From positions 1,617,495-1,681,494 of the forward strand of contig OZ251487.1 in assembly GCA_965242685.1 (NCBI GenBank): a stretch of DNA of 64,000 nt, written 5' to 3'. The notes beneath the pieces are model-generated. The model made no database searches, was not told where the DNA came from, and saw only the letters and a list, made by a program, of their open reading frames with translations. Within the stretch, counting starts at the first letter, position 1. Every line of letters starts with the position of its first letter. Of the stretch, positions 41,335 through 54,014 are shown one piece after another. Source of the DNA: Gammaproteobacteria bacterium (GTDB lineage Bacteria; Pseudomonadota; Gammaproteobacteria; UBA4575). A program made the translations under genes and the position numbers.

Positions 41335-42447
41335 TTACGCCGCCTCATAGGCGTAAGGCGCCGCTTGGGCGGTATCGACCTTACCGGTAATCAGACCGGC
41401 GAGCAGGCCGGCGGATGCAAGACTCATCGCAATGCCGTTGCGGAAGTGGCCGCCGTTGAAATAAAGGCCCGAAATTTCCGGATGCTCGCAAATGTAGGGC
41501 GTTGCACGCGAGGTGCCGGGGCGCAATGCCGCCCATTGTCGCAATGGCTTGATGCCCTTTAGTCCGGGGCAGAGTTCATGTGCCTGTGCGTGAAGATGAT
41601 CGGCCGCCTGTCGGGTAATTTTGTTTTCAAAGCCGACGTGTTCCAGCGTGCTGCCACAGAGTACAAGGCCGTCCTTACGCGGGATCAGGTATGTTTCCTT
41701 TCTTACCAGAATATGCGAAAGCAGGCGATCTTGCGGTTTGTACAACAGCATCTGCCCTCGCACGGGCACGATATCCGTTGCCTTATCGGTATGCGTCCTC
41801 AATAGCGTTGCCGTCCAGGCACCGCAACAGATCACTACTTTGTCTGCAAGCAAGTTTGTGCGTGAGGTCACGACACCCCGCACTTGGTTTGATCGTAGCG
41901 ATAGCCTTTGCACGGCAAGCTGCTCCAGAATGGTAACGCCGCATTGGCGTAGGGATTTCTTAAGCGCCTGTACGAGGCATGGAGGCCGTACCTGCCCGAC
42001 CTCGGGCAAATACAATATCTCGTGAAAATCGCGCGCCAGCATCGGTTCAAGTTCGGCTGATCGCCGCAAGGTTGCAACCTCAAGCGGCTCATCGTTCTCT
42101 TTTGCCCATCGTATCGCCCGATCTTTCTCGTCGGCATCCAAAACGATCATTCCGGAGCGCATGACCTCCGAATCTATCCCCGTTTCCTGTTGCAGCTCTT
42201 TTGCGAAGGCGGGGAATCGTCGCCGGCTTGCCGCGATCAGTGCCTGTGCGGGGGGAGACGGCCGCCATGGATGCAGCGCCGCCAGAATCCCGCCCGCCGC
42301 CCAGGTTGCCTTTGCACCGAGGGCGTCTTTTTCCAGGATTGCGACCCGTAAGCCGGCAAGATACAACTCGCGAGCGGTGAGCATGCCCATAATACCGCCG
42401 CCGATCACCAGGGCGTCATAGCTTGCATGTGGAGCGACGGCATTCAC
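41335..42447 (-). CDS. thiO: Glycine oxidase ThiO (FAD-dependent)
   Basis: VIGGGIMG, TWAAGGIL, PVRGQM, LRPG, GHFRNGI; start moved to GTG 42447 because the longer ORF overlaps the tRNA. Confidence 0.85.
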   Translation of the reverse strand: MNAVAPHASYDALVIGGGIMGMLTARELYLAGLRVAILEKDALGAKATWAAGGILAALHPWRPSPPAQALIAASRRRFPAFAKELQQETGIDSEVMRSGMIVLDADEKDRAIRWAKENDEPLEVATLRRSAELEPMLARDFHEILYLPEVGQVRPPCLVQALKKSLRQCGVTILEQLAVQRLSLRSNQVRGVVTSRTNLLADKVVICCGAWTATLLRTHTDKATDIVPVRGQMLLYKPQDRLLSHILVRKETYLIPRKDGLVLCGSTLEHVGFENKITRQAADHLHAQAHELCPGLKGIKPLRQWAALRPGTSRATPYICEHPEISGLYFNGGHFRNGIAMSLASAGLLAGLITGKVDTAQAAPYAYEAA

Positions 42448-42500
42448 AGTGTTAATGCTGTTTTGCGAGCTTGGATGAAACTGTATATAACCCTCAACAC

Positions 42501-42574
42501 TGGAGCGGGTGATGGGAATCGAACCCACGTTCTCAGCTTGGGAAGCTGATGTTCTACCATTGAACTACACCCGC
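42501..42574 (-). tRNA. tRNA-Gly (CCC)
   Basis: GCGGGTGTAGTTCAATGGTAGAACATCAGCTTCCCAAGCTGAGAACGTGGGTTCGATTCCCATCACCCGCTCCA, 74 nt. Confidence 0.97.
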
Positions 42575-42677
42575 GGCAGACACCTATTTTAACGGCTGGA
42601 GCGGTGCTATGCCATTGTCTCTACCATAGAGTAATGTAAAATATCCGGCGAGCCATGCCCGAACGCTTGCGGCGAAC

Positions 42678-42878
42678 GTGAAAATAACGGTAAACGGAAA
42701 ACAAACCCAAGTGATGAACGGTCTCACCGCCGATATGCTGCTTGAGCAGCTTGGCCTGGCCGGACAAAGAATTGCATTGGAGATCAACCGGGAAGTCGTT
42801 CCGCGCAGCGCATTGTCTCAACGCGTGCTGCAAGCGTATGACCATGTAGAGATCATTCATGCGGTCGGTGGCGGGTAA
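42678..42878 (+). CDS. thiS: Sulfur carrier protein ThiS
   Basis: 66 aa, MKITVNG start, EINREVVPRS, C-terminal AVGGG. Confidence 0.95.
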   Translation: MKITVNGKQTQVMNGLTADMLLEQLGLAGQRIALEINREVVPRSALSQRVLQAYDHVEIIHAVGGG

Positions 42879-43023
42879 CCGAAGAACCGCATGACTTAAC
42901 CCTGAATCCATAGAAAAGCTTGGGTGACTGAAAGCCGTGCCATGCAGGAATACAGGCTGTATGCAATACTTCCATAAATCAACTCGGCCTTGTCGTTGAA
43001 CCGTGCAGCTTGTCAGGCACTAC

Positions 43024-45049
43024 ATGAAAAGCCGACTGATACCCGATATTGACCCCCCCCCCCCCCCCCCGCAGTTTCTCGCTAGGTAGTACGGGACGTT
43101 TCCCGGCCTCTCGCGGGGCCTGGGTGGTCGTCCTCACCCTCTTTTTGTTGGCGGCCCTTGCCGTATTCGACGATTATGGCGTGTTTTGGGATGGACCTAC
43201 ACACAGATTTCTCGCCGAAAAAAATCTCGATTACATACTGGGAAATTCAGACACCTTTCCTCCAACAAGACAGGATGCGTTTTACGGTGCCGCCTTTGAC
43301 TTATCGCTCTTGCTGGTGGAACGCCTCCTTGGACTGGAAGATACCCGTACCATCTATCTCAGCCGTCATCTCCTGACCCACCTGTTCTTCCTGTTGGGTG
43401 GGGTCTGCTGTTACCTGTTGGCCATGCGCCTGTTCAATAATCGCCTGCTGGCCCTGGCCGCCATGCTGCTGTTCCTGTTACACCCCCGACTCTATGCTCA
43501 TTCCTTCTTCAACAGCAAGGATATTCCTTTCTTTAGTATGTTTATGATTACCCTGTTGTTGATTCATCGCGCCTTTGCTCTCAACACCGTGCGGGCGTTT
43601 TTGTTATGCGGTGCGGCGGTGGCGGTGCTGATCAATCTTCGGGTCATGGGCGTCATGCTGTTGCTTGCGGTGATGGGGATGCGGGGCTTGGATGTTTGGT
43701 ATGCCGAAGGCAGGCAGGAACGCATACGGGTGCTCAAGACCCTCGGCGGCTTCATACTGAGCAGCGTACTGGTGTTGTATGCCATCTGGCCGTACTTGTG
43801 GGAAGACCCGCTCGGGCGGTTGGTGGAGGCCGTTACCACCGCTTCTCATATCCTTCACGAGCAACCCGAGCTGTTCAAGGGAACCTTTTTCAGGCCTGCT
43901 GACCCTTCATGGGACTACCTTCCCACCTGGTTTTTGATCACGACGCCGTGGGTTACGCTATTGCTTGGTCTGGCAGGCATGATTGCGGTGGGGTATCGGG
44001 GTCTCACCCAACCAAGCAGTATATTGCGCAACACGCCGTTGCGCTTTCAGTTGTTATTGTTGATCTGTTTCATGTTGCCCATATTGGCCGTCATCGTTCT
44101 CAGGCCTACACTTTACAGCGACTGGCGACACATGTACTTTCTGTATGCGCCGTTTTGTCTGTTGGCGGCATTCGGTTTACATTGGCTGGTATCTTTTTAT
44201 AGGAAAAAATACTGGCAGGTCGGCGTCTATGCCCTGACGGGGGTTGGCCTGATCATGGTGGTCATCGAAGTAGTGCAGATTCATCCTTATCAAAATCTAT
44301 ACTTCAATGCCCTGGTAGACCGTCACACGCCAGAGTATCTGTTCACGCAATACGAGGTGGACTATTGGGGTACCTCCCGTCGTCAAGGACTGGAATATCT
44401 GCTGGAACGCTATCCCGACTCGCCCGTCCATGTTTCCGGGCGAGTTAGTTGGATCACACGAAATAGAACAATTCTTTCCGCAGCAGAACGAAAACGGGTG
44501 AAGATTACAGCACAGGGTGATTTTTACCTCGACGATCACCGCCGAGATGTTTGGAAAGGAAAAAAACCGGTTATCTTCAATTCTATCTATACGATCAAGG
44601 TCTACAATAACACTGTTCTTGCTGTGCAGACTACGGATTTGGCGTTGTTGGATGAGTCCGATCAAGCCTTCTATAGGGGCATCTACCACAAGACAAAGAC
44701 CCGTGAGTCGTTGGTTCGTTCCTTCTTTGACGTATACAGATACGAGAACAGGCTAGTCTACCTCCGGGAATCCTGTAACCCGAACGACCTGCGGGCACCC
44801 TTTTTCTTACACGTCTTTCCGGTCAACGAAGCAGACCTCCCCGATCTTTACGAGCATCTTAAAGAACACAAAAGACCAAAGGGCTTTGAAAACCTGGATT
44901 TTCTTTTTCCCAAACAAGGGGTACGCTTTGACGGAAAATGTATGGCGGTCGTACCGTTGCCCGAATATGAAATCAACTCGATCCACACCGGACAGTTCAC
45001 TAGAAAAGGCAGGGTTTGGGAAAGGAAATTTTCTCTTAAACAAGACTGA
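43024..45049 (+). CDS. GT-C (ArnT/PMT-like) membrane glycosyltransferase, array copy 1; frameshifted at the poly-C tract relative to ATG 43024 (phase OFF or homopolymer error)
   Basis: Same 5' sequence as copy 2 but C18 instead of C20; the ATG frame stops at TAG 43087-43089; the body ORF 43049-45049 has many TM helices, DDYGVFWD, HPRLYAHSFFNSKDIPF, DYWG. Confidence 0.75.
43053..43070 (+). repeat. Poly-C homopolymer (C18) in the 5' coding region of copy 1
   Basis: GATATTGA-C18-GCAGTTTCTC. Confidence 0.9.
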
Positions 45050-45121
45050 AACCCCTATCATGTCTTCCCGCGGTATGTTCTGATAAACTATGACGTTATA
45101 ACGCCTACTCTCAGGCACCGC

Positions 45122-47143
45122 ATGAAAAGCCGACTGATACCCGATATTGACCCCCCCCCCCCCCCCCCCCGCAGTTTCTCGCTAGGTAGTACGGGACGTT
45201 TCCCGGTCTCTTGTGGGGCGTGGGTGGTCGTCATTTCACTCTTTCTGTTGGCCGGCATCGCCGTACTCGACGATTATGGCGTGGCATGGGATGACCCTCT
45301 ACAAAGGAGGCATACCGAAGAGAACTTGGATTACATCTTGGGAGACCGGGATGCAATCTCCGCAACAGAATACAAGTTTTACGGCGTCGCCTTTGAACTC
45401 CCCCTGCTGCTGGCCGAGCGGGGCTTGGGACTGGAAGACACTCGTAGCATCTATCTCAGCCGTCATCTCCTAACCTACCTGTTCTTCCTGTTGGGCGCGG
45501 CCTGCTGTTACCTGTTGGCCGTGCGCCTGTTCAACAACCGTCTGCTGGCCCTGGCCGCCATGCTGCTGTTCCTTCTACATCCCCGACTCTATGCCCATTC
45601 CTTCTTTAACAGCAAGGATATTCCTTTCTTTAGTATGTTTATGATTTCCTTGTTGCTGATTCATCGCGCCTTTGCTCTCAACACCGTGCGGGCGTTTTTG
45701 TTATGTGGTGCGGCGGTGGCGGTACTGATCAACCTTCGGGTGATGGGCGTCATGCTGTTGCTTGCGGTGGTGGGGATGCGGGGCTTGGACTTGTTGTATG
45801 CCACAAGCCGGGAAGAACAGAAACATATTCTGAAGACCGGCGGGGTTTTCATACTGAGCAGCGTCCTTACCTTGTATGCCATTTGGCCGTACTTGTGGGA
45901 AGACCCGCTCGGGCGGTTGGTGGAGGCCATTACCGCCGCTTCCCGCTTTCCTTACGGTCTTCCTATAGCATTTAAGGGAGAGTCTTTCGGTAATACCAAT
46001 CTTCCCTGGGACTATCTTCCCACCTGGTTTTTGATCACGACGCCGTGGGTGGCGTTGTTGTTGGGGTTGATCGGTATCGTCCTGGTATTGGGTCGCGGCA
46101 TCCTTCGGCCGGGAGATATAGTGCGCAATACACCACTGCGCTTTCAATGGTTATTGCTGGCCTGTTTTGTGTTGCCCATACTGGCCGTCATTGTTCTCAA
46201 TTCCGTACTTTACGATGGCTGGCGACATATGTACTTCATCTATGCGCCGTTCTGTCTGTTGGCGGCATTCGGTCTGAATCAACTGGTATCCCTTTCCAGG
46301 AAGACATACTGGGGAATCGGTATCTACGCCCTGACGGGAATTGGCCTGTTCGTGGTGGTCATAGAAATGGCGCAGATTCATCCTTATCAACAGTTATATT
46401 TCAATGCCCTGGTAGACCGTCACACACCGGAATACTTACGCACCCAATACGAGATGGACTATTTCGGAGTTTCATACAGCAAGGGGCTGGAATACCTGCT
46501 GGAACGCTATCCCGACTCGCCCGTCCATGTTTATGGAAAGATTGGCAAGATCAAACGAAATAGAGCCATCCTTCCCGCAACGGAGCGACAACGGGTGAAG
46601 ACAACACGGGGTGATTTCTACCTCCACGACTACCGCCAAGATATTTGGAAGGGAAAAAGCCCGGACATCTTCAACTCTATCTATACGATCAAGGTCTACA
46701 ACAACACTATTCTTGCTGTGCAGAGCATGGATTTGGCGTTGTTGGATGAGTCCGATCAAGTCTTCTATCGGGACACGTACCACAAGACAAAGACCCGTGA
46801 ACCGGTCACTCGTTCCGTCTTTGACGTGTACGTTGATCATGACAAGCTGGTTTATGTCAAGGAATTATGTGGCGGAGAAGACGTGTGGAAACCCTTTTTC
46901 GTACACGTCTTTCCGGTCAACAAAGCAGACCTTCCCGATTTTTACGAGTATCTCGCAGAACACAAAAGGCCAAAGGGCTTTGAAAACCTGGACTTTGGTT
47001 TTCCCAAACACGGGGTGCGCTTTGATGGAAAATGCGTGGCGGTCGTACCGTTGCCCGAATATGAAATCAACTCGATACGCACCGGACAATTCACGAACGA
47101 AGGCAAGGTTTGGGAAGGGAAGTTTTCTCTCAAACAAAACTGA
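45122..47143 (+). CDS. GT-C membrane glycosyltransferase, array copy 2 (in frame)
   Basis: 673 aa; DDYGVAWDDP, HSFFNSKDIPF, YDGWRHMYF; shared C-terminal Cys domain. Confidence 0.8.
   Translation: MKSRLIPDIDPPPPPPRSFSLGSTGRFPVSCGAWVVVISLFLLAGIAVLDDYGVAWDDPLQRRHTEENLDYILGDRDAISATEYKFYGVAFELPLLLAERGLGLEDTRSIYLSRHLLTYLFFLLGAACCYLLAVRLFNNRLLALAAMLLFLLHPRLYAHSFFNSKDIPFFSMFMISLLLIHRAFALNTVRAFLLCGAAVAVLINLRVMGVMLLLAVVGMRGLDLLYATSREEQKHILKTGGVFILSSVLTLYAIWPYLWEDPLGRLVEAITAASRFPYGLPIAFKGESFGNTNLPWDYLPTWFLITTPWVALLLGLIGIVLVLGRGILRPGDIVRNTPLRFQWLLLACFVLPILAVIVLNSVLYDGWRHMYFIYAPFCLLAAFGLNQLVSLSRKTYWGIGIYALTGIGLFVVVIEMAQIHPYQQLYFNALVDRHTPEYLRTQYEMDYFGVSYSKGLEYLLERYPDSPVHVYGKIGKIKRNRAILPATERQRVKTTRGDFYLHDYRQDIWKGKSPDIFNSIYTIKVYNNTILAVQSMDLALLDESDQVFYRDTYHKTKTREPVTRSVFDVYVDHDKLVYVKELCGGEDVWKPFFVHVFPVNKADLPDFYEYLAEHKRPKGFENLDFGFPKHGVRFDGKCVAVVPLPEYEINSIRTGQFTNEGKVWEGKFSLKQN
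45151..45170 (+). repeat. Poly-C homopolymer (C20) in the 5' coding region of copy 2
   Basis: GATATTGA-C20-GCAGTTTCTC, read as DPPPPPPR. Confidence 0.9.
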
Positions 47144-47276
47144 AGCATCAGACCAGCGTTTGCGGAAGCTATAACGTTTTCTCACGTTGTGTTCTGGTAA
47201 ACTGTGATGTTGCAATGCCTTTACTTTTGAGCCGTATAAAAGCGTCCAGCTACCAAACGATTGATACCTTTACCCT

Positions 47277-49298
47277 GTGGTTCTCATTCCCCCTGTGGCT
47301 TCTCATTTCCTCCGCAGTTCCTCGTTAAGTAATACAGGGCGTTTCCCGGTCTCTTGTGGGGCGTGGGTAGTCTTTTCCCTCTTTCTGTTGGCCGGCCTTG
47401 TCGTACTCGACGACTACGGTGCGTCGTGGGATGAATTCACACAACGGAGATACGCCGAAGAAAATCTGGACTACATCTTGGGAAACTCGGACACTTTTTT
47501 AACAAGACATGATGCGTTTTACGGCGCCACCTTTGACTTATCGCTCTTGCTGGCGGAACGTATTCTTGGACTGGAAGACACCCGTAGTATCTATCTCAGC
47601 CGTCATCTCCTGACCCACCTGTTCTTCCTGTTGGGCGGGGTCTGCTGTTACCTGTTGGCCCTACGCCTGTTCAACAACCGTCTGCTGGCCTTGCTCGCCA
47701 TGCTGCTGTTCCTTCTACATCCCCGACTCTATGCCCATTCCTTCTTCAACAGCAAGGATATTCCTTTCTTTAGTATGTTTATGATCGCCCTGTTTCTGAT
47801 TCATCGGGCTTTTGAACGCGACACCGTGCGGGCGTTTTTGTTATGTGGTGCGGCGGTGGCGGTGCTGATCAACCTGCGGGTGATGGGCGCCATGCTGTTG
47901 CTTGCGGTGGTGGGGATGCGAGGCTTGGACGTTTGGTATGCCGAAGGCAAGCAGGAACGCATACGGGTGCTCAAAACCCTCGGCGGTTTCATACTGAGCA
48001 GCGTATTTGTGCTATACGCCATTTGGCCGTACTTGTGGGAAGACCCGCTCGGGCGGTTGGTGGAGGCCATTACCATCGCCCCCCACCTTCCTTTCACAAG
48101 AATCCAATTGTTCAAGGGGACCTTTTTCAACCCTGCCGACTTACCATGGGACTACCTTCCCACCTGGTTTTTGATCACGACGCCGTGGGCGACGTTGTTG
48201 TTGGGTTTCATTGGTATCGTTGCGGTGGGGTATCGAGGCCTTACCCAACCACGAAAGATAGTGCGCAACACACCACTGCGCTTTCAATGGTTATTGCTGG
48301 CCTGTTTCATATTGCCCATACTGGCCGTTATTGTCTTCAAGCCTACACTCTACACCGGCTGGCGGCACATGCACTTTCTCTATGCACCGTTCTGTCTGTT
48401 GGCGGCATTCGGTTTGTATCAACTGGTATCTTTTTATAGGAAAAAATACTGGAGAGTTGGAGTTTATGCCTTGACGGGAATCGGCTTGGGGATCGTCGTC
48501 ATGGAGATGGCGCAGATTCATCCTTATCAACACTTATACTTCAATGCCCTGGTAGACCGTCACACGCCGGAGTATCTGCGCACCCAATACCAGATGGACT
48601 ATCATGGGACTTCCTATCGTGAAGGACTGGAATACCTGCTGGAACGCGATCCCGACTCGCCTATCCATGTTTCAGGGCGAATTGGCTGGATCAAACGAAA
48701 TAGAGAGATCCTTCCCGCAACGGAGCGACAACGGGTGAAGAAGACAGCACGTTCCGACTTCCACCTCGACGACTATCGTCGAGATGTTTGGGAAGGAAAA
48801 AAACCGAATCTCTTCAATTCTATTCATACGATCAAGGTCTACAACAATACTATTCTTGCTGTGCAGACTACGGATTTAGCGTTGTTGGATGAGTCCGGTC
48901 AAACCTTCTATCGGAACGTCTACCACAAGACAAAGGCCCGTGAGCCGGTCACTCGTTCCGTCTTTGACGTATACAGATACGAGGACAAGCTGATCTACCT
49001 CCGGGAATCCTGTAACCCGGACGACCTGCGGGCACCCTTTTTCTTACACGTCTTTCCGGTCAACGAAACGGACCTTCCCGATTTGTACGAGTATCTCGCA
49101 GAACGAAAAAGACCAAAGGGCTTTGAAAACCTGGACTTTGGTTTTCCCAAACACGGGGTGCGCTTTGACGGAAAATGCGTGGCGGTCGTACCGTTGCCCG
49201 AGTATGAAATCAACTCGATCCGCACCGGACAGTTCACTAGAGAAGGTAAACTTTGGAGTGTCGGCTTGAAAGGGAAATTTTCTCTCAAACAAGACTGA
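47277..49298 (+). CDS. GT-C membrane glycosyltransferase, array copy 3 (start uncertain)
   Basis: Paralogue of copies 1 and 2; DDYGASWDEF; no upstream in-frame ATG, only GTG. Confidence 0.75.
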   Translation: MVLIPPVASHFLRSSSLSNTGRFPVSCGAWVVFSLFLLAGLVVLDDYGASWDEFTQRRYAEENLDYILGNSDTFLTRHDAFYGATFDLSLLLAERILGLEDTRSIYLSRHLLTHLFFLLGGVCCYLLALRLFNNRLLALLAMLLFLLHPRLYAHSFFNSKDIPFFSMFMIALFLIHRAFERDTVRAFLLCGAAVAVLINLRVMGAMLLLAVVGMRGLDVWYAEGKQERIRVLKTLGGFILSSVFVLYAIWPYLWEDPLGRLVEAITIAPHLPFTRIQLFKGTFFNPADLPWDYLPTWFLITTPWATLLLGFIGIVAVGYRGLTQPRKIVRNTPLRFQWLLLACFILPILAVIVFKPTLYTGWRHMHFLYAPFCLLAAFGLYQLVSFYRKKYWRVGVYALTGIGLGIVVMEMAQIHPYQHLYFNALVDRHTPEYLRTQYQMDYHGTSYREGLEYLLERDPDSPIHVSGRIGWIKRNREILPATERQRVKKTARSDFHLDDYRRDVWEGKKPNLFNSIHTIKVYNNTILAVQTTDLALLDESGQTFYRNVYHKTKAREPVTRSVFDVYRYEDKLIYLRESCNPDDLRAPFFLHVFPVNETDLPDLYEYLAERKRPKGFENLDFGFPKHGVRFDGKCVAVVPLPEYEINSIRTGQFTREGKLWSVGLKGKFSLKQD

Positions 49299-49368: not shown

Positions 49369-51849
49369 ATGACACCTGTCCCCCCCCTCCCCCGCAGCTC
49401 GCTAAGTAATATGGGACGTTCCCTAACCTCTCGCGGTGCCTGGGCGTTCGTCCTCGCACTCTTTCTGTTGGTCGGCATCGCCGTACTCGACGATTATGGC
49501 GTGGCATGGGATGACCCTACACAACGTAACATCGCCAAACTGAACGCCGACTACATCTCGGGAAAAGATGACAACCTACAGCTGAGACAAAAAGATAAGC
49601 ATTACGGCATTGCCTTCGAACTCCCCCTGCTGTGGATCGAGCGCGCCCTAGGCCTGGAAGATACCCGTAACATCTATCTTAGCCGTCATCTGCTGATTCA
49701 CCTGTTTTTCCTGTTGGGCGCGGCCTGCTGTTACCTGTTGGCCCTACGCCTGTTCAACAACCGAATCCTCGCCCTGGCCGCCATGCTGCTGTTCCTGTTG
49801 CATCCCCGACTCTATGCCCATTCCTTCCTCAACAGCAAGGATATTCCTTTCTTTAGTATGTTTATGATCACTCTGTTGCTGATTCATCGTGCCTTTGTGC
49901 GCGATACCGTGCGGGCGTTTTTGTTATGCGGTGCGGCGGTGGCGGTGCTGATCAACCTTCGGGTCATGGGCGTCATGCTGTGGATTGCGGTGATTATTAT
50001 GCGGGGCTTGGATGTCTGGTATGCCGAAGGCAGGCAGGAACGCATACGGGTGCTTAAGACCCTTGGCGGCTTCATACTGAGCAGTGTCCTTACCTTGTAT
50101 GCCGTTTGGCCGTACTTGTGGAAAGACCCATTCGGGCGGTTGGTGGAGGCCTTCACTATCGCTTCCCATTACCCTAACAAGGTTACCGAGCTGTTCAAGG
50201 GGGAATTTTTCAGCGGTTTTGATCTTCCCTGGGAGTATCTTCCCACCTGGTTTTTGATCACGACGCCGTGGGTGGCGTTGTTGTTGGGTTTGATCGGTAT
50301 CGTTGCGGTGGGGTATCGGGGTCTCGCCCGACCAAGCAATGTATTGCGCAACACGCCGCTGCGCTTTCAATGGCTACTATTGGCTTGTTTCATATTGCCT
50401 GTGTTGGCGGTTATGCTGTTGGGGTCAACACTCCACGATGGCTGGCGACACATGTACTTCATCTATGCGCCGTTCTGTTTGTTGGCGGCGTATGGTTTGC
50501 ATCAATTGGTATCCCCTTCCAGGAAAAAATACTGGCGGGTCGGCGTTTATGCTCTGACGGGAATCGGCCTGGTCGGAGTGGTCATCGAAATGGTGCAGAT
50601 TCATCCTTATCAAAATGTCTACTTTAACGCCTTGGTAGACCGTCACACACCAGAGTATCTGCGCACCCAATATGAGATGGACTATTGGGGGACTTCCTAT
50701 CGTGAAGGGCTGGAATACCTGCTGGAACACTATCCCGACTCGCCCGTCCGTGTTTATAGGAAGAGGTATAGCCATGCAGACATAAACAGTTTGATCCTTC
50801 CCGCAACGGAGCGCCGGCGGATTGTGTTTGATGATGATACACCGAGTGCCCCACACTTCGCCATGATATTCTTCCATAATGATACCGTCCGTGATGATGC
50901 GCTGAGTAGTCCATACTTCGCCATGTACCCCATGTATCCCACACCTTCCGATAAAGAAGAGCTGATCCACACCATCAAAATATATAACAACACCATCCTG
51001 GCGGTGTACGCCGTGAACCTGGACCTTCTGCCGGATGAGCAAGCCTTCTATCGGAATGTCTACCACAAGACAAAGACTCGTAAGCCGGTCATTCGTTCCT
51101 TCTTTGACGTGTATTGGTACAGAGGTGGTGGCGGGCTGCCCCATCATGATTCTGCTGTAGAGTTTCGGTACACAGACAGGCTGGTTTACATCAGGGAATC
51201 CTGCCATCCGGATGACCTAAAGCAACGCTTTTTTCTACACATCTTTCCAAAAAACAGAGACGACGACCTGCCCGATTCCCATCGGCCGCACGACTCTGAC
51301 AATTTAGACTTTGACTTTTTCCAATACGGCAGACGGGTGGACGGAAAATGTATGGTAGTCGTGCCGTTGCCCGAATATGACATGGATTATATCCGCACTG
51401 GACAGTACGGCCACGAAGGTGAACTCTGGAGCGGCGGCTTGAAACTGCAAACTGAAACAAGCCGGCTAACGAATACTACGGCATGGCTAGATAATACCCC
51501 ATGGCGGGAAATTATCTCCGGAAAACCGGCGATTGATTCCGCCTTCGACGTGTACCTGGACGAGAACCGGCTGATCTACTTCAAACAACCCTGCGCGGTG
51601 GCAGATACGCGGGCCGAGTTTTTTCTGAACATCTATTCAGAGGACACGAATAACCTCTCCGACCGAAAAGACGGCCTGATAAAAACGAAAATCCCTTTTT
51701 ATTTTCCTATGTATGGCAAACGTTTTGACGACCAATGCGTGGCCGTCGTACCGCTGCCCGAGGTTGACATCGTCCGTATCAGGACCGGTCAACGGCGACC
51801 CGGCCCCGATAGGAAAAAAGTATGGAAAGGGAAGTTTTCTCTCAAATAA
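49369..51849 (+). CDS. GT-C membrane glycosyltransferase, array copy 4, with two C-terminal domain repeats
   Basis: Paralogue; ATG 49369 followed by interrupted tract C8-T-C5; the FDVY...C...FFL...C.A/VVPLPE...IRTGQ...W module occurs twice. Confidence 0.8.
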   Translation: MTPVPPLPRSSLSNMGRSLTSRGAWAFVLALFLLVGIAVLDDYGVAWDDPTQRNIAKLNADYISGKDDNLQLRQKDKHYGIAFELPLLWIERALGLEDTRNIYLSRHLLIHLFFLLGAACCYLLALRLFNNRILALAAMLLFLLHPRLYAHSFLNSKDIPFFSMFMITLLLIHRAFVRDTVRAFLLCGAAVAVLINLRVMGVMLWIAVIIMRGLDVWYAEGRQERIRVLKTLGGFILSSVLTLYAVWPYLWKDPFGRLVEAFTIASHYPNKVTELFKGEFFSGFDLPWEYLPTWFLITTPWVALLLGLIGIVAVGYRGLARPSNVLRNTPLRFQWLLLACFILPVLAVMLLGSTLHDGWRHMYFIYAPFCLLAAYGLHQLVSPSRKKYWRVGVYALTGIGLVGVVIEMVQIHPYQNVYFNALVDRHTPEYLRTQYEMDYWGTSYREGLEYLLEHYPDSPVRVYRKRYSHADINSLILPATERRRIVFDDDTPSAPHFAMIFFHNDTVRDDALSSPYFAMYPMYPTPSDKEELIHTIKIYNNTILAVYAVNLDLLPDEQAFYRNVYHKTKTRKPVIRSFFDVYWYRGGGGLPHHDSAVEFRYTDRLVYIRESCHPDDLKQRFFLHIFPKNRDDDLPDSHRPHDSDNLDFDFFQYGRRVDGKCMVVVPLPEYDMDYIRTGQYGHEGELWSGGLKLQTETSRLTNTTAWLDNTPWREIISGKPAIDSAFDVYLDENRLIYFKQPCAVADTRAEFFLNIYSEDTNNLSDRKDGLIKTKIPFYFPMYGKRFDDQCVAVVPLPEVDIVRIRTGQRRPGPDRKKVWKGKFSLK

Positions 51850-51876: not shown

Positions 51877-54014
51877 ATGAGCTATGAGGGAATGAAAAGG
51901 TCATCGGTGATTCGACAAATCCTACACCGCTGGCCGTACCTCATACTGCTGCTGACGCTGTCAACCGTCTTTATATCCGGCGGCGACCGAGGCTATTTTT
52001 ACCAGGGCTATGACTGGTCCTCATCTATGAATATAGCTATAGCCGCCAATCTTTCCCCCCGGCATGGCTTTCTCATGTTTCAGCACAAAACACGGGATGA
52101 AGATGGCAACCAAGTCTACGCCCCCTACAACCGCTTTCCAATCGGGGGGTACGCATTACTGAAACTGTCCATATTGCCCTTCGGAGACGACCTCTCCGCA
52201 CAAATCCGCGCCGCCAGGATACTGATGCTGCTGTTGTTTATCGCCAGCGCGGTATTGGCGTACCTGGCACTGTGTCGTCTCGTCGGCAATCGAGGCATCG
52301 CCCTGGCCGCAACGCTGCTGGCCTTCTCCTCCTATAACATCCTGTACTTCAACACGATGATCGGAGAAGTCATGGTCGGCCTGCTTGGAATGATGTTGGT
52401 CTTCCACGGCATGGTCGTCTTTGTCCAGGAAAACCGCTTCCGACAGTTGTTGATCAAGGTAGGTATTGGATTATTGTTGAACTGGCACGTCTTTGCATTG
52501 CTCCTCCCCTTTACTTTTCTTGGCCTGATGAAAGAATTATTTACAAGTCTGAGGGCACGGCCGCCCCCCTATATTTTGAAACGTCTGACGGTTTCTCTGT
52601 TGCGCAGCCGTTATTTGGTACTCGGTGTCTTTGCCCTGTTTTTCGGTACGGCGGTACTGACATTTAATCTCACGAATGAATACATTGCATTGGATGGCAA
52701 GACCCCCCTGACAGAATTGCCGACTTTCGGTTCTCTCAAGGCTCGTACCGGGCTAGATCCAGAGTTTAACGCCACTTTTGCCGACGATCTGACGTGGAAA
52801 ACCTACCTGAAACAACAGTCCGAGAAATTGTATCGAGCATTACTTCCCGCCGCCGTGATGCTGGACGTGGTGCTGGATGGTACCGATATAGACATAAATG
52901 AAGCCGTCCCTTACCGTATCCCGTGGTACCGGCCGACGCCGCATGATAGCCCCCCCAAAGTCGGCACAGTCGAAGTTATACTCACTTTTTGTATGATCGC
53001 GCCATGGTTTCTTCGCTTTTTTCATCGCCACAAAATCCTGCTGGTGTCCTTGGCGCTATCGGGGCCGGTGTGGGCACTGCTGATGCGTAGAACCGTTGCC
53101 TTTCATGAATTTGAAAGCGTTTATTACATCGGCATCCCGCTGGTTTTTTTCTCCTTGGTGCTATCGTACACACACCGGTTATCCAAAAGATGGGCCGCCC
53201 TTGTGGTCGGTGCGGCCGTCATGGTCTCGGCGGTAGGCTTTGCCTTTTCCAGCCTGCAAACGGGCGACATCGGCCACGATCCCGAAATGGCCGAATATCA
53301 GGCGTCGTTGGTCAACGAATTCAGTGCCATCCGCAAAATTACCCAAGGAAAAAATGTCTTTTTCCCAATATCTGATTATTACACAAACGAGATTCTATTT
53401 TCTGGCGCGCGGCACGGCCTGGACTACTATTTTTCCGGCAGCCACCTCTTTTTCAAAGGTCAAACTGGCAACGACTTGGACAGCTATTGCGTCACGCGTA
53501 AATCGGCAGATGGCTTTCCTTCTTTGACGCCCGACAATCAAAAAGTATTCCTGTATGCAGATGCCGCCACCTGCGACAAACTGGATGCGGCACAACGAAA
53601 GGAAGCCCGTAAAATGTATCGACAAGCCGTCCTTGGTCGGCAACCGGTCATTCGTCCTTCTTTGACGTGTATTGGTACAGAGGTGGTGGCGGGCTGCCCC
53701 ATCATGATTCTGCTGTAGAGTTTCGGCATCAAGACACCCTGGTTTACATCAGGGAGTCCTGTACCGAAAGCGATACCGAAGCGCGTTTTTTATTGCATTT
53801 TGAACCGTTCGATGTGGACGACTTACCCGAATCCCGTCGGTCGCACGGTTTTGACAATCGGGACTTTGTTTTTCCCAAACACGGCAAACGGATGGACGGA
53901 ACCTGTATGGCGGTCGTGCCATTGCCCGAATATGAAATCAGCTTGATCCGCACCGGGCAGTACACGAACGAAGGTGTGATCTGGGAAGGGAAGTTTTCTC
54001 TCAAGCAAGATTGA
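51877..54014 (+). pseudogene. Divergent multi-TM GT-C-like gene, array copy 5, with a 1-bp frameshift near 53655 that detaches the C-terminal domain
   Basis: ORFs 51877-53718 and 53667-54014 join if one T is restored (CGT-CCTTC here versus CGT-TCCTTC in copy 4); N-part has YNRFPIGGY and HEFE and differs from copies 1-4. Confidence 0.7.

Follow-up and report, generated by a model that had tools for sequence, protein, structure and literature searches.

Long poly-C tracts near the 5' ends of tandem glycosyltransferase genes suggest reading-frame phase variation in an uncultured gammaproteobacterium

Introduction

Repeat-driven phase variation is textbook knowledge for vertebrate pathogens and commensals. 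At lic1 of Haemophilus influenzae, a tetranucleotide repeat acts as the switch and start codons are available in two frames. The gtrABC systems of Salmonella and Shigella encode phase-variable polytopic glycosyltransferases of the GtrC type that modify glycans at the periplasmic face and of which each strain holds several families, with a switch that is epigenetic (Dam/OxyR) and not driven by repeat slippage. In Neisseria, glycosyltransferase genes vary in phase through homopolymeric G/C tracts, as at gonococcal pgtA (PMC2193922). Likewise, a report on Campylobacter jejuni (PMC8355987) describes poly-G contingency genes, mainly G9-G10, that turn ON and OFF stochastically through insertions and deletions in an organism devoid of functional mismatch repair. 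Here, we analyse two tandem paralogous genes (copies 1 and 2) for predicted membrane glycosyltransferases that carry long poly-C tracts near their 5' ends and that lie in a stretch of 64,000 nucleotides (hereafter the window; GCA_965242685.1, contig OZ251487.1, positions 1,617,495 to 1,681,494) from a gammaproteobacterium of the lineage UBA4575, and we place these tracts in the context of the whole genome.

Results

Two tracts of different length within identical flanks

Copy 1 carries C18 at positions 43053-43070 and copy 2 carries C20 at positions 45151-45170, both on the forward strand and each ten codons downstream of an ATG. They were located by reading the sequence and by searching for a pattern of 12 consecutive Cs, which gave 16 overlapping matches in the window, all of them within the two tracts, and none in any of 100 dinucleotide-preserving shuffles; apart from these two, homopolymers in the window are at most 8 nt long. 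Leader, tract and the first 36 nt thereafter form a shared 5' block (43024-43106 versus 45122-45206), and the flanks are identical over 30 nt upstream and 36 nt downstream of the tract. Beyond the shared flank the two copies diverge; counted from the end of the tract, the first block of 60 nt is 93% identical and the second 78%.

In copy 1, the ATG at 43024..43026 opens the leader MKSRLIPDID, and at C18 its frame encodes MKSRLIPDIDPPPPPPQFLAR and is closed after 21 codons by the TAG at 43087..43089. In copy 2, the frame of the ATG at 45122 is open at C20 and gives a protein of 673 aa (45122..47143, forward strand) that includes six consecutive prolines. In all of this, as in the identity of the flanks, the outstanding length of the two tracts and the arithmetic by which the ATG frame would be open at n = 17, 20 or 23, our analysis agrees with the original prediction, which had taken C18 for the OFF state and C20 for the ON state of a slipped-strand translational switch. 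It had overlooked an open reading frame (ORF) of 666 aa in copy 1 (43049..45049, forward strand), predicted to encode a GT-C/PMT_2 glycosyltransferase, that begins at a TTG (43049..43051) located 4 nt upstream of the tract and in the +1 frame. From this TTG, which is in frame with the long ORF whenever n is a multiple of 3, copy 1 at C18 encodes MTPPPPPRSFSLGST… with five prolines, and an in-frame GTG 19 codons after the tract (43124..43126) is a possible tract-independent start. The predicted N-terminal peptides are MKSRLIPDIDPPPPPPR from the ATG, MTPPPPPR from the TTG and MVVL… from the downstream GTG.

We consider slipped-strand ON/OFF switching through the reading frame to be the best reading of these tracts and give it a probability of about 0.68. 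The poly-C runs, which lie in codons 10-16 of the two tandem paralogs, would be hypermutable simple-sequence repeats, and replication slippage would alter n and thereby bring the 650-aa body of the protein into or out of frame with an upstream start. For the leader of copies 1 and 2, n = 2 mod 3 would be ON from the ATG, n = 0 mod 3 would be in frame only with the TTG, probably with weak expression, and n = 1 mod 3 would be fully OFF; ribosomes out of frame would stop after 4-5 codons.

A family of 28 paralogs and a genome-wide set of tracts

The genome, a single contig of 1.83 Mb with 51% G+C, holds 28 full-length paralogs of the glycosyltransferase that are 69-77% identical to copy 2. Fifteen of them carry C15-C28 at the same codon position, and the other 13 have short or interrupted C-rich sequence there. 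The tract lengths of the 15 genes are spread across all three frames. Copies 1 and 2 differ in length (n = 18 versus 20) despite 66 identical flanking nucleotides, their gene bodies differing at dS 0.50 and dN 0.17, and the same 29-nt leader recurs in two further paralogs with n = 28 and 27. Leader classes do not follow the similarity of the gene bodies, the body nearest to that of copy 1 being joined to a leader of a different class, which suggests that 5' cassettes made up of start, tract and tail have been exchanged by recombination to produce mosaic genes. With 15 of 28 paralogs putatively switchable, a population would display many combinations of glycan-modifying enzymes and could vary its surface towards host cells or phages. 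One tract-bearing paralog (G000:C1:1236236-1238137, C27; G000 denotes this genome) has two internal stops, one TAG and one TAA, and is likely a pseudogene.

C/G runs in this genome reach 8 nt, followed by one G9 and then by 38 tracts of 11-29 nt, and A/T runs never exceed 10 nt. Fifteen of the 38 tracts lie in the glycosyltransferase genes, five in or beside autotransporter-family genes, two in genes for large surface proteins (He_PIG and Calx-beta), six in DNA methylase genes and one more in an OpuAC gene, in an assignment that covers the tracts other than eight of at least 11 nt and the G9 run. These tracts outside the glycosyltransferase genes stand at the 5' end or in the interior of the gene concerned, and for two of the autotransporters we verified tract and Pfam assignment. 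The six methyltransferase genes (N6_Mtase or N6_N4_Mtase; G000 C1:1783, 81322, 362085, 1029877, 1181642 and 1188472) bear G/C tracts of 11-20 nt at the 5' end or within the ORF, and two of them are fused to T5orf172/MUG113 domains. They are candidates for phase-variable methylases (phasevarions). The classic repertoire of contingency loci consists of surface glycosyltransferases, adhesins and methyltransferases, and the gene classes that bear tracts here match those of known phase-variable genomes.

The same match bears on whether the tracts change length at all. If they were static, the out-of-frame lengths would be miscounts of sequencing or assembly, and all copies would encode an N-terminal proline linker and be expressed at all times. 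Homopolymers of 15-29 nt are error-prone on every platform, and the assembled contigs that we compared do not cross the tracts. In the contigs of four of the ten listed sequencing runs (X7, X8, X10 and X1), compared on either side of regions 43045-43080 and 45143-45180, a 508-nt contig (X7, X8) and a 144-nt contig break off immediately before each tract, because the 31-mers there are common to paralogs with the same leader. Scans of the metagenome contigs with the exact left flank plus C8 and with a degenerate right-flank pattern gave 0 matches each. On the other hand, static tracts would require miscounting in 12 of 15 cases, the lengths extend from 15 to 28 among genes with near-identical flanks, 13 paralogs manage without a tract, and the tracts fall into the same gene classes as in phase-variable genomes, so that we hold constant expression of all copies to be very improbable.

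Long homopolymers also provoke slippage of RNA polymerase, as has mostly been shown for A/T runs. On this general knowledge, the tracts might act as a rheostat in which RNA polymerase slips on the run of 18-29 nt, frames are mixed at every DNA length and expression is low and dependent on length. The tracts are far longer than the G9-G10 given for C. jejuni (PMC8355987). Slippage on C/G runs is hypothetical here, however, and would add to switching at the DNA level instead of replacing it; there is only a slight chance, in our view, that a rheostat is the explanation.

Probable translation through the tracts and the choice of start codon

Whether the tract is translated decides between frame switching and a downstream start, with which the poly-C would sit in a 5' untranslated leader, either inert or tuning transcription or mRNA structure. 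For 26 of the 28 paralogs, two with a one-codon indel being dropped, we compared the 18 codons that follow the tract and found 0.286 differences per site at third positions versus 0.172 and 0.181 at the other positions, and a synonymous share of 0.53 in the coding frame versus 0.23 and 0.31 in the other frames, with pairs that are not independent. Because of this third-position variation and synonymous share, we take the post-tract tail to be translated. Homologs in other organisms start just before this tail (e.g. MSHFLASRGAW and MRSLASRAPYPVW), and in most tract genes the stretch from the tract to the first transmembrane segment (TM1) is free of start codons, except for a TTG inside TM1. The ATG or GTG about 30 nt upstream is retained in tract genes, and several tractless paralogs have ATA in its place.

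A downstream start draws support from the GTG that is in frame in both copies 1 and 2, and from G000 769850 and 1228110, in which no upstream start is in frame but an ATG 8 codons past the tract is. The GTG occurs in just four of the 15 tract genes, though, and initiation there would drop the conserved arginine-rich tail and shorten TM1; the coding signature of the tail, its presence in homologs elsewhere and the retention of the upstream ATG/GTG likewise speak against it, and we rate a downstream start as unlikely. Most likely, ribosomes start upstream and read the tract as prolines. Such a polyproline stretch would plausibly depend on EF-P, as the original prediction had proposed for the ON state, and the genome has an EFP domain (G000 1022266-1022427) as well as a tRNA-Pro(GGG).

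Of the 15 tract genes, three (copy 2, G000 624444 and G000 1333285) have the upstream ATG/GTG in frame, five, including copy 1, are matched in frame only by a TTG located 3-6 nt ahead of the tract, and seven lack any upstream start in frame. Among the tractless paralogs, 12 of 13 have a start in frame. Beyond the tract, both of the remaining frames run into a stop within 4-5 codons in 13 of the 15 genes that carry one. We considered whether the conserved TAxxTAx after the tract, which places stops in both off frames, is an evolved feature and rejected this, since it also occurs in tractless paralogs. L110, a paralog that shares the leader of copies 1 and 2 but has an interrupted tract (CCCCCTCTCCCC), has an intact ORF, of 657 aa, only from the TTG (MTPSPRSFSLGNT…), and its ATG frame stops after 19 codons. 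As a test of function of this TTG-locked paralog, pairwise dN/dS among the 28 paralogs had no power (0.32, versus 0.31 for a known pseudogene and 0.32 for all pairs).

The sequence context strongly supports the reading-frame switch proposed in the original prediction: the only upstream start codons and the conserved tail lie on opposite sides of the tract, the other frames close early, and the genome has 38 such tracts in gene classes typical of contingency loci. The assignment of the two states in that prediction is not secure. To call C18 OFF is unsafe because C18 is in frame with the TTG and L110 is intact only in the TTG frame, because P0015 (641 aa), the entry for copy 1 in the source database, begins at the downstream GTG, and because tract lengths in the assembly may be miscounted. 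Judging from the locked paralog, what appears as OFF in copy 1 may be ON from a weaker start, and if the TTG were the main start, the assignment of C18 to OFF and C20 to ON would be reversed.

Several observations weigh against slipped-strand switching. MutS and MutL are present, so that no repair defect explains the tracts, and length variation is recorded neither at the level of reads nor between samples in contigs that stop short of the tracts. That only three of the 15 genes are in frame with an ATG/GTG fits random phase but equally fits assembly miscounts. On direct reading, nothing more than a weak AGG precedes the ATG, and the TTG lacks any match to a Shine-Dalgarno sequence. Finally, a scan of 42400-47400 for promoters and terminators gave 4 and 8 sites against 3.7 and 5.7 expected, and thus nothing above chance.

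The predicted enzyme

The four paralogs headed by copies 1 and 2 score 28.9, 29.2, 35.0 and 31.3 bits (copies 1-4) with Pfam PMT_2 (PF13231), above the gathering cut-off of 26.1. An AlphaFold2 model of copy 2 built on an alignment of 38 sequences (pLDDT 80.7, pTM 0.81) has residues 1-28 disordered and places TM1 at residues 27-47. Foldseek returned 29 PDB matches to this model at E <= 0.001, with TM-scores of about 0.36-0.43, among them STT3, AglB, PglB, Pmt4, ArnT (5f15), ALG9, Emb and Aft of the GT-C superfamily. Right after TM1 lies a DDYG motif; across the 38 sequences, its D51 and Y52 never vary, and conservation of D50 and G53 is at least 90%. GT-C enzymes have an acidic catalytic motif at this site, and DDYG is probably the corresponding catalytic loop motif, facing the periplasm. 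By domain score and model, then, the copies are predicted to be polytopic GT-C (PMT_2/ArnT-like) membrane glycosyltransferases. A search of NCBIfam models with the enzyme gave no match, and it is not assigned to ArnT proper, the lipid A L-Ara4N transferase; a sequence search of the PDB gave no chain at E <= 1. We infer for the enzyme a surface-glycan substrate and a role in glycan modification.

The tandem array and its neighbourhood

The array consists of four tandem paralogs on the forward strand, at 43049-45049, 45122-47143, 47277-49298 and about 49369-51849, with copies 1 and 2 at its head. Copy 3 (47277..49298) is tractless and has a C/T-rich stretch with an in-frame GTG at the tract site (…VASHFLRSSSLSNTGRFP…). 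Copy 4 (49369..51849) has an interrupted tract, C8-T-C5 at 49381-49394, in frame with the ATG at 49369, and bears two C-terminal modules. The array is bordered by housekeeping genes (GlmU-like, GlmS-like, LysR, DAO and OTCase). Directly upstream, among these, is a tRNA-Gly(CCC) gene (42501-42574, reverse strand), which may be the insertion site of the array; a search of 42000-48000 against Rfam gave tRNA only.

In the region after the array (51877-54008) lies an ORF of 613 aa with no Pfam match that ends inside a copy of the C-terminal module of the family. The module continues in another frame (tblastn match at about 53727-54008), and the region is either a frameshifted gene or an assembly error.

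Relatives, family distribution and habitat

Tracts of at least 14 C occur in five of 31 related genomes, namely this one (G000), the same-genus G001, G004, G012 and G030, in a set whose fragmented assemblies could not show tracts. G001 has no full glycosyltransferase and shares only the C-terminal module of about 110 aa. It does have a family of 450-aa membrane proteins that shares this module (L003, L009 and L011) and whose genes carry C21, C20 and G26 at the 5' end, and a tractless paralog of that family reads GTPPPHKGLD at the tract site. G004 has ORFs of 1761 and 1980 aa that contain many repeats of the C-terminal module. No clear ortholog was found among six loci in a search of relatives for an orthologous tract of methylase L017; one of the six (L109, from G001) has C22 about 250 nt upstream of the methylase match.

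Of the 30 closest relatives of G000, 28 lack the GT-C family. In a search of genome contigs, 554 of 585 candidate stretches encode relatives of the glycosyltransferase, and the best 79 loci (L025-L103) come from metagenome-assembled genomes (MAGs) labelled Binatia, Dehalococcoidia, Spirochaetia, Latescibacteria, Nitrospirales, Gemmatimonadota, Pseudomonadales and others, often with several family copies per genome and with one to several of the C-terminal modules. This distribution suggests that the family has spread horizontally within a shared habitat. Among the 79 best loci, a single one carries a long 5'-terminal tract, a C27 in a Dehalococcoidia MAG that is in frame between a GTG and the enzyme.

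Two further runs were seen in MAGs of this set. In a Pseudomonadales MAG (L025:4230-4420), a family member is followed downstream by a small ORF that contains C16 and encodes MKMDPVADNHN and then prolines, and a Dehalococcoidia MAG (L089:558-575) has C18 in the middle of a paralog.

Among the ten listed sequencing runs, five bear the label sponge metagenome and a sixth the label metagenome, each with a small share (0.07-0.11). In run X1, the one of these whose contigs were compared, 27 of 155 pieces match at an identity of at least 99%, on short contigs. These labels only hint at a sponge habitat of the host bacterium. Autotransporter and OmpA domains point to a host of the Gram-negative type.

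Discussion

We have described two long poly-C tracts that differ in length within identical flanks, in genes that belong to a large paralogous family with such tracts in more than half of its members. The genome-wide tract set probably lets this uncultured, likely sponge-associated bacterium switch surface features at random. The widest interpretation would be that a probably sponge-associated bacterium with a reduced genome devotes about 3% of its DNA to 28 GT-C paralogs, that fifteen exchangeable 5' cassettes of start codons and unusually long poly-C serve as three-state switches (strong from the ATG, weak from the TTG and off in the third frame), and that these form, with phase-variable methyltransferases and adhesins, a full contingency system in an invertebrate symbiont, built on a family shared across many bacterial phyla of such communities. 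Taken as a whole, this is speculative and we consider it doubtful.

If the tracts do switch, they would be a natural case of combinatorial variation of surface glycans outside pathogens, with fifteen switchable enzymes and six candidate phase-variable methyltransferases in 1.83 Mb, and would bear on how symbionts escape phages or phagocytosis by the host. In the literature that we searched (full text of open PMC papers, and bioRxiv), we found no paper on repeat-driven phase variation in symbionts of sponges or other invertebrates, nor on this glycosyltransferase family. There is also a consequence for annotation, as gene callers cut out-of-frame copies back to starts inside TM1 (P0008, P0012, P0015 and P0019), which hides the structure of the family.

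The comparison with described systems shows where this locus is familiar and where it departs from them. As in gonococcal pgtA (PMC2193922), a G/C homopolymer lies within the ORF of a surface-glycan glycosyltransferase and its length would switch the enzyme. The Neisseria enzymes are soluble or peripheral and encoded by single genes, whereas those predicted here are polytopic GT-C proteins with 28 paralogs, 15 of which have tracts of 15-28 nt. With C. jejuni (PMC8355987), this genome has in common many G/C tracts in a small genome and their location in surface-structure and restriction-modification genes, but its tracts are 11-29 nt long, MutS and MutL are present and the host is an uncultured bacterium instead of a vertebrate pathogen. 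In contrast to gtrABC, no gtrA/gtrB partners adjoin the genes, and a single ORF with a GtrA domain is found elsewhere in the genome. As at lic1, two starts in different frames before the repeat would give three expression states, yet here the repeat is a mononucleotide C and the second start, the TTG, is deduced from the locked paralog only. Within the same genome, the autotransporter genes have the same kind of 5' poly-C tract, but they encode an outer-membrane family and not inner-membrane glycosyltransferases. The mechanism itself is already known. The host, the GT-C family, the length of the tracts, the copy number and a possible second start set this case apart, and the locus is more interesting as part of a genome-wide system than as a pair of genes.

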